From an uncultured Chloroflexia bacterium (GTDB lineage: Bacteria; Chloroflexota; Dehalococcoidia; GIF9; UBA5629): 64,000 bases of DNA. Within the stretch, counting starts at the first letter, position 1. The number at the start of each line of letters is the position of its first letter. Both the position numbers and the translations under genes were made by a program. The stretch is taken from contig CAWKFY010000031.1 of the NCBI GenBank assembly GCA_963848815.1, forward strand, positions 637 through 64,636. Reading direction: 5' to 3'. A model generated the notes under the pieces. The model was not told the origin of the DNA and did no database searches. It worked only from the letters and a program-made list of their open reading frames with translations. Shown one piece after another: positions 50,561 to 64,000 of the stretch.

Positions 50561-52164
50561 CTATTCCCACTCAATGGTTGAAGGAGGTTTGCTGGTTATA
50601 TCGTAGACCACTCGGTTTACGCCGGGCACTTCGTTGACGATCCTGTTGGATATAGCGGATAAAAGAGGATACGGCAGCCTCGCCCAGTCGGCCGTCATGG
50701 CATCCTGACTGGTCACCGCTCGCACCGCTACCAGGTATCCGTATGTCCTGAAGTCGCCCATAACGCCCACGCTGTGCACATCGGTAAGAATGGCGAAGGT
50801 CTGCCACATCTCGCGATACAGTTTGGCCTTTTTAATCTCGTTCATCACGATCCAGTCAGCGCCCCGCAATATCTCCAGCTTTTCCCTGGTGACCTCGCCT
50901 ATGATACGGATAGCCAGGCCGGGACCCGGGAAGGGCTGACGCCAGACCATATCTTCCGGCAAGCCGAGCTCCAGCCCAACCTTGCGCACTTCGTCCTTGA
51001 AAAGGTATCGCAGCGGTTCGATCAACGTCAGCGCCATTTTGGCCGGCAGGCCGCCCACGTTGTGATGCGTCTTGATCTTGGCAGCCGCTTTGGTCTCGGG
51101 GGTAGCGCTTTCGATAACATCCGGGTACAACGTGCCCTGTGTCAGAAAATCTATCTTGCCCAGCTTGGTTGCCTGCCTCTCAAAGACCCTGATGAATTCC
51201 TGGCCGATTTGCTTTCTCTTCTGCTCCGGATCGATTACGCCTTTGAGCTTTTTCAGGAAGTTGTCGGTGGCATCCACATAAATCACGTTCATGCGCAGGT
51301 TTTTACGGAAGGTATTGAGTGCTCTTTCAGGCTCCTCGCGCCTGAGCAAACCATTATTAACAAAAATACATGTGAGCTGGTCGCCTATGGCAGCGTGCAC
51401 AAGTTTGGCTGCAACGGCAGAATCGACCCCGCCGGATAGAGCGCAAATTACCTTGCCACCATGTACCTGCGACCTTATAGCGCCGATGCTTTCATTAATA
51501 AAATTGCCGGGCGTCCATGTGCCCTTGCAGCCGCAGACCCGGTAAAGGAAGTTTTTAATGATATTGATGCCTTCCGGCGTGTGCGCTACCTCAGGATGAA
51601 ACTGCAGGCCGAAGGTCTTGCGGCCGTCGCTGATCACTGCATTGGGTGAATTTTCCGTGTAGGCGGACGATTTGAATCCCGGGGGCATATCTATCACCTG
51701 GTCGCCGTGGCTCATCCACACCGAGAGTGATTCGGGCAGGCCTCTGAACAGAGGCGATCTTTCATCGCTCACGTGCAAGACAGCCTGCCCGTATTCACGT
51801 TTGGCGCCCGGCGCAACGGTGCCGCCAAGCTGATGGGTGATCAGCTGCATGCCGTAGCAGATGCCGAGAACCGGAAGGTGGCTTTCATAGATGCCAACCG
51901 GCGTCAGCGGAGCTTTCTTCTCATATACGCTGGCAGGGCCGCCCGAGAGGATAAAGCCGCGGGGGTGGATGGCCATGATCTGTTTAGAGGGGCGTCATGC
52001 GGGAAAAGCTCGCAATATACATTGCATTCCCTGACGCGGCGTGCTATCAGGTGGCTGTACTGGGAGCCGAAATCGATGATGGCGATGGCTTCTTTTACGC
52101 CGTGCGGACACTTCGCCCGGTTTGGGGGCAGCCTGTACTCCCTGAAGCTCTTTGGCGATTTCAA
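50561..52164 (-). pseudogene. guaA: GMP synthase (glutamine-hydrolysing); frame break between the GATase start and the rest; 5' end uncertain
   Basis: ORF 50561-51976 (471 aa) runs from ...[10 protein letters not shown] through the ATP-PPase motif SGGVDS to ...PPSTIEWE. The GATase N-terminus [31 protein letters not shown] is in another frame (ORF 51904-52164). Confidence 0.9.
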
Positions 52165-52339
52165 GATAGGCCGAAACTTCGGCGTCGTCGGTGGTGGCTA
52201 CGCGGTGGCTGCCTGTTTCTTCTTTACCCTTCTTCATTGGAAAAGTATATCACAGGGCAAGCAGAGCATTCCAATGTGAGCCATATTTAAACTATGGCGC
52301 GATTTAGAGTACAATTTCTCTGTAAAATCCGCCCGTAAA

Positions 52340-52984
52340 ATGGAAAATAAAGCAATTTTGAAAACACTCTCGCCTACTCTTATGACCGGGTAAACCGGGC
52401 CGTGGCCGTCCTCCGGGAAGGCGGTATCGTGGCCTATCCCACGGATACCGTTTACGGGCTGGGCGCCGATATATATAACGATGAGGCGGTGAGAAGGATA
52501 TTACAGCATCAAGGACCGTCCCCTGAACCAGCCTTTGCCGGTGTTGATAGCGGATGCCGGATCAGGCCGGAATGCTTGACTGGCAGTCAACCCAAATTGG
52601 CGCAAATACTGATGAAAAGGTTCTGGCCGGGCGGCCTGACAATCATCTTGGACAAAAGTCCCGAGTTCAACAGCCTGGTGCTGGCCGGAGGCCATAAAAT
52701 AGGCATCCGCATGCCGGCTCACAAGGTGGCCAGGGCCATGATCGAGAAGCTGGGACGGCCGATTGTAGGAACGAGCGCCAACCTGCATGACAGGCAGCGG
52801 CTTTAACCGCCGCCGAAGTGCGAAAACAGCTCGGTGGCCGGGTGGATATCATCTGAACGGCGGCACATGCCCGCGGCGGCAGGGAATCGACCGTCATCGA
52901 CATGACAGTGGATCCGCCGTCATCGTAAGGCAGGGAATAGTACCCGAAGAGGGAAATCCTGGCCCTAATAAAAACAGGGGGTAG
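52340..52984 (+). pseudogene. tsaC: L-threonylcarbamoyladenylate synthase (TsaC/YrdC/Sua5 family), multiple frame breaks
   Basis: Fragments in different frames: MENKAILKTLSP / NRAVAVLREGGIVAYPTDTVYGLGADIYNDEAVRRI / IKDRPLNQPLPVLIADAG / LAQILMKRFWPGGLTIILDK...IGIRMPAHKVARAMIEKLGRPIVGTSANLH / LTAAEVRKQLGGRVDIILNGGTCPGGRESTVIDMT. Confidence 0.8.
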
Positions 52985-52989
52985 TTAAT

Positions 52990-53443
52990 ATGCTAATCGC
53001 CATGGGAAGCGATCATCGCGGGACTCGACCTTAAAGATAAAATCTCTGAGTTATCTCAAGGCCAATGGTCATACCGTGATAGACTTCGGCATGTTACGGC
53101 AGCGAATCGGTGGATTACCCGGATTTCGCCTCACGCGGTGGCACAATCGATCATGACCGGCAAGGCCGAACTACGGCATCCTGATTTGCGCTACGGGCAT
53201 AGGCATGTGCATAGCCGCCAACAAATTCAAAGGTATCAGGGCGGCGCTATGCTGCAACCCGGAGCTGGCTGTGCGCGCCCGCCGGCATAATGATGCCAAT
53301 GTGCTCTGCCTGGGCGCTGATTTTGTAGCGTGCCGCAGATGCGCTGGAAATCGTCAAGGAATTTCCTGGCAACGGGCTTCGAAGGCGGCAGGCACCAGCG
53401 ACGGCTGGATAAAATATCGGAAATTGAGTCGCAGTTTGCTTGA
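52990..53443 (+). pseudogene. rpiB: ribose-5-phosphate isomerase B, multiple frame breaks
   Basis: Fragments: MLIAMGSDHRG / DLKDKISE / GHTVIDFG / VDYPDF / [48 protein letters not shown] / [17 protein letters not shown]. Confidence 0.8.
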
Positions 53444-61857: not shown

Positions 61858-62365
61858 TGACACTGAAAGGTAAAGTTTTTAAATACGGCGACAATGTGGA
61901 TACGGACGCCATCATACCGGCGCGATACCTGAACCTGTTCGAGCCGGCCGACCTGGCGGCACACTGCATGGAAGATATCGATGCCGATTTCGTCAACAAG
62001 GTAAAGCCGGGCGATATCATCGTGGCCGACATCCAATTTCGGCTGCGGCTCTTCCCGTGAGCATGCGCCGGTGGCCATCAAGGCATCGGGCATCTCCTGC
62101 GTCATAGCCAAAAGCTTCGCACGCATATTCTTCCGCAACGCCATCAACATCGGCCTGCCGCTGCTCGAATGCGAGGAGGCAGTGGACAACATCAAGGCGG
62201 GCGACATGGTGGAGGTCGACCTGGCCACCGGCAAAATAACCAACCTGTCCACCGGCAAGACATTCACCTCCAAAGCCTTACCCCGATTTCATGATGCAGA
62301 TAGTCGATGCCGGCGGGCTGGTGGAATACACCAGAAAAGAAACTGGCGGGAGCGAAGTAGCTTGA
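61857..62365 (+). pseudogene. leuD: 3-isopropylmalate dehydratase small subunit; at least 2 frame breaks
   Basis: [26 protein letters not shown]...GDIIVA / [45 protein letters not shown]...FTSKALP / [25 protein letters not shown]. Confidence 0.9.
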
Positions 62366-63476
62366 AATTCAAAATTGCAGTCCTTGCCCGGCGACGGCGT
62401 CGGCCCCGATGTCGTCAACGAAGCACAGCGCGTACTGGATGCGGTCGGGCAACGCTTCGGCCACCAGTTTGATATACAACACTGGATTGATCGGCGGCAT
62501 AGCCATCGACAAATTCGGCGAGGCGCTGCCGCAGGAAACGCTGGAGATGTGCCGCAAGCTGCGATGCCGTCCTGCTCGGCGCGGTGGGCGGGCCCAAATG
62601 GGACGATCCCAATGCCAAGGTCAGGCCGGAGGACGGCCTGCTGGCCGTCAGAAAAGGGCTCGAGCTTTTCGCCAACCTGAGGCCGGTTAAGATGCTCCGT
62701 ATGCTGGAGAACTCCACCAGCCTCAAGCCGGAGATGGTGCGCAACGTCGATATGATCGTCATGCGCGAGCTGACCGGCGGGCTCTATTTCGGCAAGCCCA
62801 AAAAGAGGTGGAGCAACGCCGTGGGCGGCAGGGCGGTGGATACCATGTACTATACCGAGAAGGAGATCGAGCGCATCGTCCGCGTCGGCTTCGAAGCTGG
62901 CCATGGGCACGGCGCAAGAAACTGACCTCGGTGGACAAGGCCAATGTGCTGGAAACGTCGCGCCTGTGGAGGCAGATAGCCAGCGAGATTGCGGCCGAAT
63001 ACCCGGAAGTCAAGCTGGACAACATGCTGGTGGACGCCTGCTCCATGCGCCTGATACAGAATCCCGCTTATTTCGATGTGATCGTCACGGAAAATACGTT
63101 CGGCGATATACTCACCGACGAGGCATCCATGCTGGCGGGCTCCATGGGCATGCTGCCTTCGGCCAGCCTGGCCGGGATACCCGGCAGGCAAACGCAGCGA
63201 GCCTTTGGTCTGTACGAGCCCATCCACGGCAGCGCCCCGGATATCGCCGGCATGAATATAGCCAACCCGATCGCCACTATACTGAGCGCGGCCATGATGC
63301 TGCGCTATTCCTTCGGCCTTGAAGCGCGAGGCGGAAGCGGTGGAAAAAGCGGTGCTGCAAGGCACTGAATGACGGCTACCGCACCAAGGATATAATGAGC
63401 GAGGGCATGAAGCAAGCTGGGCACTGCGGAGATGGGCAAGCTGATCGCGGAGAAGGATCGAGCATTAAAGGGCTAA
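62362..63476 (+). pseudogene. leuB: 3-isopropylmalate dehydrogenase; several frame breaks
   Basis: (TTG) MKFKIAVL / [30 protein letters not shown] / GLIGGIAIDKFGEALPQETLEMCRK / [40 protein letters not shown]...[14 protein letters not shown] / [81 protein letters not shown]...[21 protein letters not shown]. Confidence 0.9.
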
Positions 63477-63482
63477 ATCAGT

Positions 63483-64000
63483 ATGAAACACGTTAGATTT
63501 ATATGATACCACGCTGCGGGACGGCGCGCAGCAGGAGGGCATCTCCTTCACCGTATCGGACAAGCTGAAGATTACCCAGAAGCTGGACGAGCTGGGGATA
63601 AATTACATCGAGGGCGGCTGGCCCGGCTCCAACCCCAAGGACACCGAGTTCTTCGAAAAGGCCACGGAACCTGAAGCTGAAACAGGCCGTGCTGGTGGCC
63701 TTCGGCAGCACGCGGCGTGTCGACGTCAGGGTCGAATGAGGATGACGGCTTGAAGGCGCTGGTAGAATCAGGCGCCAAAGCCGTCAATATCGTGGGCAAA
63801 ACCTGGGACCGGCAGGTGACACAGGTGCTGGAAACCAGCCTGGAGAACAATCTGGCCATGATCGATGAATCCATCGCCTTATCTTAAATCAAAGGGGTTA
63901 ACCGTATTTTTCGACGCCGAGCATTTCTTCGACGGCTTCAAGTCCAACCCGGACTATGCCATTGAAGCGCTCAAGGCCGCCGACAAGGGAGGCGCCGACT
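63483..64000 (+). pseudogene. cimA: (R)-citramalate synthase (LeuA-related), partial at window end, several frame breaks
   Basis: MKHVR / [57 protein letters not shown] / [18 protein letters not shown] / [44 protein letters not shown] / LKSKGLTVFFDAEHFFDGFKSNPDYAIEALKAA. Confidence 0.8.

Follow-up and report, generated by a model that had tools for sequence, protein, structure and literature searches.

Frame breaks across the branched-chain amino acid genes of a draft Dehalococcoidia genome are very probably leftover consensus errors and not gene decay

Why should the genes for branched-chain amino acid synthesis in a bacterium lose their reading frames again and again, when each stretch between two breaks still encodes normal-looking protein? 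This question is raised by a stretch of 64,000 nucleotides (the window) from an uncultured Chloroflexia bacterium (Dehalococcoidia; GIF9; UBA5629; assembly GCA_963848815.1). The window corresponds to positions 637-64,636 of contig CAWKFY010000031.1 (C31; 76,868 bp), which is part of a metagenome-assembled genome (MAG) of 2.25 Mb in 46 contigs. By the names they carry, its closest protein relatives put it in the Dehalococcoidia of the phylum Chloroflexota. Past about 52 kb, the listing of open reading frames (ORFs) of the window consists of fragments only. An initial annotation, made from the letters alone, had noticed dozens of frame changes past about 51.95 kb in an ilv-leu operon and its neighbors, and the observation holds: from position 51,985 onward, 62 insertions or deletions (indels) of one or two bases, private to the MAG, lie in the window. 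They belong to a bounded block of 13.5 kb with about 5 indels per kb. The breaks are real in the sequence as deposited, but they are almost certainly leftover single-base errors of the consensus and not signs of gene decay.

How many breaks are there, and where do they stop? The gene order tsaC-rpiB-ilvD-ilvB-ilvN-ilvC-leuA-MgtC-like-leuC-leuD-leuB-cimA is found intact in three genomes of the same genus, G004 (complete, in one contig), G005 and G002; their DNA is 80-81% identical to the window and colinear with it. Using the intact orthologues of these same-genus genomes as queries, frameshifts in each gene were counted by our own frameshift-aware dynamic-programming aligner of proteins to DNA. 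The same aligner returned 0 frameshifts for nearly all block genes in four relatives, so its false-positive rate is negligible except near gene ends. It replaced tblastn, which undercounts as an event counter when used alone since its alignments run through short shifted segments. Coverage by long ORFs was also tried as a simple measure of quality and was dropped, because GC-rich DNA gives long spurious antisense ORFs.

Private indels, that is, those present in the MAG and absent from the four relatives, were counted in a DNA alignment of the five genomes made with MAFFT. Between C31 52,621 and 66,112 there are 69 private indels of non-triplet length: 49 of +1, 13 of -1, 4 of +2 and 3 of -2. 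By this alignment and the frameshift-aware one, the error-dense block (no strand assigned) covers window positions 51,985-64,000 and continues to about 65,476 in window numbering. The initial annotation had drawn the block to the end of the window. It stops near C31 66.1 kb, and the next gene (C31 67,094-68,548) is free of frameshifts. The events are not evenly spread inside it: the kilobase from C31 53,000 holds 15 of them, while only about 3 are found in the far cleaner ilvB-ilvC part (window 55.2-58.3 kb). Even a conservative count gives 39 events in the block against 5.3 expected at the background rate of the genome (Poisson P = 5e-21).

What kind of changes are these? Single-base insertions outnumber single-base deletions by about 4:1 (49 vs. 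13). Many of the insertions sit in contexts that are otherwise identical in all the relatives, such as GCGT[C]GAGA and TACT[C]GGGC, where the extra base is bracketed. The indel sites share no motif and no codon phase, the insertion slots being even across the three phases (11/15/20), and they occur in intergenic DNA as well; the orthologues are uninterrupted. The initial annotation had suggested looking for breaks in homopolymers. When this was done, the indels were not found to be concentrated there: most runs close to the events have a length of 1-3 nt, and the inserted base equals a neighboring base in 10 of the 49 insertions, while random insertions simulated through the same pipeline do so in 37% (P = 0.011).

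With codons beside the breaks excluded, the ratio of nonsynonymous to synonymous substitution rates (dN/dS) against G004 is 0.054 in the block, compared with 0.051 in 60 frameshift-free genes of the same conservation and 0.084 in 80 random intact genes. Likewise, the block holds one true nonsense codon against its 69 indels. Selection on the block genes is not relaxed.

Is the block exceptional in its genome? As a control, the ORFs of G004 (all 2.46 Mb) were aligned to the MAG. Outside the block, 642 interior frameshifts were found in 1,375 orthologue pairs covering 1.36 Mb (0.47 per kb), and 355 of the 1,375 orthologues (26%) carry at least one; +1 events make up 63%. The broken genes identified by NCBIfam include those for the large subunit of carbamoyl-phosphate synthase (carB, with 12 frameshifts), FtsH, glycine-tRNA ligase (glyQS), AroB, ThrS and PheT. 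Clusters of at least 5 events number 34 and contain about half of all events; the block makes up two of them, and the other dense clusters span 0.6-4.8 kb. C36 15,152-19,482, with 31 events (7.2 per kb), is denser than the block; C22 55,263-60,057 has 18 events, and C20 121,742-125,248 has 15. Further dense clusters are seen at C38 20,398-23,261 (carB), C19 137,174-139,690 and C33 37,978-41,111 (aroB). All these clusters have 3-7 events per kb and are biased to insertions like the block. A mixture of two Poisson rates for the counts per aligned kb describes the genome better than a single rate by 198 log-likelihood units; the lower rate, 0.24 per kb, holds for 91% of the sequence, and the higher, about 3 per kb, for the remaining 9%. 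Thus, the block is the longest, not the densest, case of a property of the whole assembly. At only 74.7% (CheckM-type), the completeness estimate of the MAG is what breaks in many marker genes would lead one to expect.

Frameshifts also follow base composition. With the block excluded, they occur at about 0.4 per kb where GC is below 56%, at 0.7 where it is 56-58%, and at 1.1-1.3 above 58%. A sampling of half the genome had suggested no link between GC and error clusters, which was overturned by the map of the full genome. It is to be noted that the block was described by the initial annotation as rich in GC and in GC at third codon positions (GC3), and the values agree: GC is 0.57 in the block vs. 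0.51 in the genome, and GC3 is 0.758 vs. 0.653. The block is among the longer GC-rich stretches of the genome, and this may explain its being the longest bad one.

Taken together, that the indels are private, that selection is unrelaxed, that insertions dominate, that the defect is found genome-wide including essential genes, and that quality is bimodal leads us to consider it highly probable that the frame breaks of the block are residual consensus or polishing errors in a draft MAG, the cause being inferred from these patterns. The boundaries of the block point the same way since they ignore biology: the left edge falls within guaA, not at the boundary of the operon, and tsaC and rpiB, unrelated to branched-chain amino acids, are covered as well. 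So does the about three-fold rise of error density above 58% GC, the block being a long GC-rich stretch. The initial annotation had offered as its most economical readings either a poorly polished or low-coverage stretch or a chimeric join; indirect evidence favors the former, and the latter finds no support.

How could such a block have arisen? The assembly would exist in two states of quality, with some 0.24 frameshifts per kb in about 91% of the sequence and roughly 3-5 per kb in about 9%, and the 13.5-kb block would be the longest run of the bad one. Extra bases, mostly single and random in identity and position, were probably retained during consensus building. This may have happened because the long reads were noisy and too few, because a polishing step failed, or because reads were mixed locally, and GC-rich DNA would be more prone to such errors. 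Bad stretches measure 0.6-13.5 kb and are alike in density, which would fit noisy long reads with a local failure of depth or polishing. Co-occurring strains might have been blended as well (cf. PMC8445201), but nothing in our analysis shows it.

Precedents are easily found. Consensus indels of long reads are known to fragment genes (PMC9262707), and bins of low coverage need polishing (PMC12007338, Kastor). In these cases, as in the MAG, single-base indels split canonical genes, many proteins are truncated and completeness is lowered; stretches of low coverage or without polishing are the worst, and intact orthologues expose the defect. Another precedent is the collapse of diverged alleles, which creates apparent frameshifts (PMC8445201); there too, the frameshifts exist only in the consensus and cluster where variants lie close together. 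However, that case is a diploid eukaryote, and the MAG would need a mixture of strains in place of alleles, of which no second haplotype is seen. Pseudogene-rich genomes of bacteria recently restricted to a host also have many near-intact genes with frameshifts. Unlike them, the MAG shows no relaxed selection, almost no nonsense codons and an insertion bias, its essential translation genes are broken, and its blocks of lesions cross gene boundaries.

Some observations nevertheless weigh against leftover errors. The indels lie away from homopolymers, unlike the signature of nanopore reads in PMC9262707, in which homopolymer indels dominate; in the block, insertions dominate and avoid homopolymers. 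Neither was a clean copy from the same species found: an exact look-up of ilvN gave no match, and the best relatives of ilvC among 5.8 billion proteins are 95% identical, with no conspecific. The three mates of the truncated ilvC of the MAG in its 90% cluster come from contigs that are 82-84% identical at the DNA level, and therefore from other species. Finally, the GC3 excess is beyond the reach of sequencing errors, so that two unusual properties coincide in the block.

This last point deserves closer attention. GC3 is 0.758 in the block against 0.606 in the G004 orthologues, compared with 0.653 against 0.609 genome-wide, while codon positions 1 and 2 have the same GC as in G004 (0.492 against 0.490), so the excess is confined to third positions. 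Per gene, the block exceeds G004 by 4 to 7 GC points, where the genome-wide excess is +1.3 (standard deviation 2.2); its mean residual has a z of about 5.9. Nowhere else in the genome is the GC3 excess as large. The onset of the excess is approximately that of the errors (guaA +1.4, tsaC +4.1), and an AT-rich islet immediately left of guaA sharpens the contrast at this edge. On the right, the GC3 excess runs on to C31 69 kb, past the end of the errors. Excesses of about 4 GC points also occur elsewhere with few or no frameshifts, and other error clusters have no excess. Since the excess outlasts the errors and occurs elsewhere without them, we take the GC3 shift to be something apart from the errors, a native trait that evolved in the operon of this lineage.

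Could the block instead have come from a second source? One may suppose that reads of a co-occurring, related population of higher GC and lower sequencing depth made up the block wholly or in part, taking over near 52.0 kb and giving way again near 66-69 kb, or that two diverged haplotypes were blended and their merging made spurious indels. Such a mixed or chimeric consensus would account for the GC excess over G004 at third positions only and for its start at about the same place as the errors, and it has a known counterpart in the apparent frameshifts of collapsed alleles (PMC8445201). It would also fit the tendency of the inserted bases to differ from both neighbors, as if two alleles were both emitted. 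If they were, inserted bases should lie beside third codon positions; the slots are uniform instead. The initial annotation had placed a chimeric join near 51.9-52.0 kb, and the comparison with congeners speaks against it. Synteny is unbroken at both edges, one high-scoring segment pair (HSP) of blastn to G004 spanning C31 51,197-69,168 at 80.9% identity, which is like the 80.4% of the left 26 kb of the contig. Block proteins, once corrected in frame, share 87.5-89.5% identity with those of congeners, compared with 83.6% for two other genera, as expected for the genus. Congeners differ from each other slightly less in the block genes (90.6-93.3% identity), and the somewhat larger distance of the MAG would be about what 58 locally misaligned break points add. 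Pairwise matrices of DNA and protein identity show no change of affinity in the block, the pattern being as in the flanks. By these comparisons, the block is not a join of unrelated sequence. Moreover, the GC excess continues beyond the errors to C31 69 kb and is dissociated from frameshifts elsewhere in the genome, a co-assembling strain would be too close to differ by 15 GC3 points, and the MAG bin has a single ilvD locus. We therefore hold a second source to be improbable.

A reading of lower probability still is that tsaC, rpiB and branched-chain biosynthesis were really inactivated very recently, as a part of genome-wide pseudogene formation; for these genes, the initial annotation had considered it under the name of wholesale decay. 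The broken genes are indeed the only copies in the MAG, and a stop of the substitution type (the TAG of ilvD) stands beside the indels. In bacterial pseudogenes, a deletion bias and slippage at repeats are expected. The block shows the opposite, insertions at about 4:1 over deletions and indels away from homopolymers, together with an unchanged dN/dS of 0.054 and 69 indels for one nonsense codon. The same kind of lesion is found in thrS, pheT, glyQS, ftsH and carB, which are indispensable to a free-living cell, and the left edge inside guaA is not an operon boundary. The operon is intact in all relatives. Real indels could also be due to a recent mutational burst specific to insertions, or to inactivation of ilv-leu at the population level in this Dehalococcoidia lineage; we give this likewise a very small chance. 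Such a burst might be linked to the process by which GC3 rose in the block, for example, recombination-associated repair. Recoding by programmed frameshifting, or removal of the extra bases at the RNA level, has nothing more in its favor than the normal look of the proteins from break to break. About 5 events per kb at non-conserved and motif-free sites that are absent from every relative, with shifts in both directions and in intergenic DNA too, leave this idea effectively refuted.

How, then, do leftover errors appear in each gene? The left edge is in guaA (GMP synthase), which lies on the minus strand at 50,564-52,243 and has two frameshifts, -1 at 51,985 and +1 at 52,105, both within its N-terminal 87 or so codons. 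The initial annotation had described its codons 1-471 as intact. There is in fact an intact stretch of 471 codons (50,561-51,976), but as the gene is on the minus strand it is the C-terminal part, matching profile positions 41-512. All the genes that follow are on the plus strand. The tsaC-like gene (52,310-52,985) has 8-9 frameshifts and is the densest part of the block. A compensating pair had been supposed here; three +1 insertions, at 52,500, 52,561 and 52,575, were found instead. The next gene, rpiB (52,990-53,450), has 6-8 frameshifts, all of +1, and a length of 461 nt for 151 codons.

In the ilv part, ilvD (53,548-55,222) has 9 frameshifts, 8 of +1 and 1 of +2. Its in-frame TAG at 54,933-54,935, the sole stop of the substitution type in the block, falls on a codon in which the relatives differ (G019 has AAG). 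Downstream, ilvB (55,242-56,937) has one +1 at 56,122, where an extra base had been noted before, ilvN (56,969-57,538; 189 codons) is intact with 0 frameshifts and, as first described, can be read without changing frame, and ilvC (57,600-58,591) has two +1 events, at 58,333 and 58,429. The alleles of this part are shared among species in a mosaic manner: IlvB of the MAG is 96.5% identical to that of G004 and about 84% to those of G005 and G002, a pair with 95% identity between them, while for IlvD it is G004 and G002 that are 95% identical, with 84-88% to the rest (loci L005-L009). Such a mosaic suggests that species of the genus have recombined inside the operon. For ilvC, a parallel was seen in an unrelated contig (L083; contig_96263 of ENA ERZ25039473) of 84% DNA identity, in which the gene is in pieces of 205 and 60 amino acids and genes for TonB receptors are fragmented too; it looks like another noisy long-read assembly.

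In the leu part, leuA (58,633-60,178) has 6 frameshifts, among them a deletion of 1 nt near 58,972, at the run of A residues pointed out earlier. It is followed by a gene of the MgtC family (60,171-60,575), to which one frame change had been ascribed; the net frameshift is 0, and what exists is a pair of +1 at 60,241 and -1 at 60,255, 14 nt apart, with a TGA in the shifted stretch between them. The position of this gene between leuA and leuC is kept in all five relatives examined, and its identity is 77-86%, whether relatives are compared with the MAG or with one another. Six frameshifts are found in leuC (60,601-61,854), three, all of +1, in leuD (61,857-62,357), and seven in leuB (62,324-63,455, the start coordinate being approximate), one of them an extra base at 62,384 that had likewise been spotted by eye. 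The last gene, a LeuA-related, citramalate synthase-like cimA, runs from 63,477 to the end of the window at 64,000 and on to about 65,086 in window numbering, with 7 frameshifts, 4 of them in the window.

Two features to the left of the block may be added. At 49,378-50,527, radical SAM and SPASM domains are encoded by overlapping ORFs of 179 and 222 amino acids in different frames; a background frameshift near 49.86-49.92 kb has probably divided a single gene here. At 42,362-45,308, there is a 23S rRNA gene, 97.5% identical to that of G004, with no 16S rRNA gene upstream, and a tRNA lies 50 nt downstream of it, in the place where 5S is expected.

What does the block tell us about this organism and its genome? 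For the genome, gene calls, pathway reconstructions and completeness estimates based on this MAG are unreliable. Consensus errors split about one gene in four, and little weight should be given to other findings from it that depend on one frameshift or on a domain supposed to be "lost". The way by which errors were told from decay here needs no reads and can be reused elsewhere: private indels, their spectrum and codon phase, dN/dS, the state of essential genes, and genome-wide clustering. As for the organism, its own tsaC, rpiB, ilv, leu and cimA genes are most likely intact, and an apparent lack of valine, leucine and isoleucine synthesis would be one of the false results that such an assembly gives.

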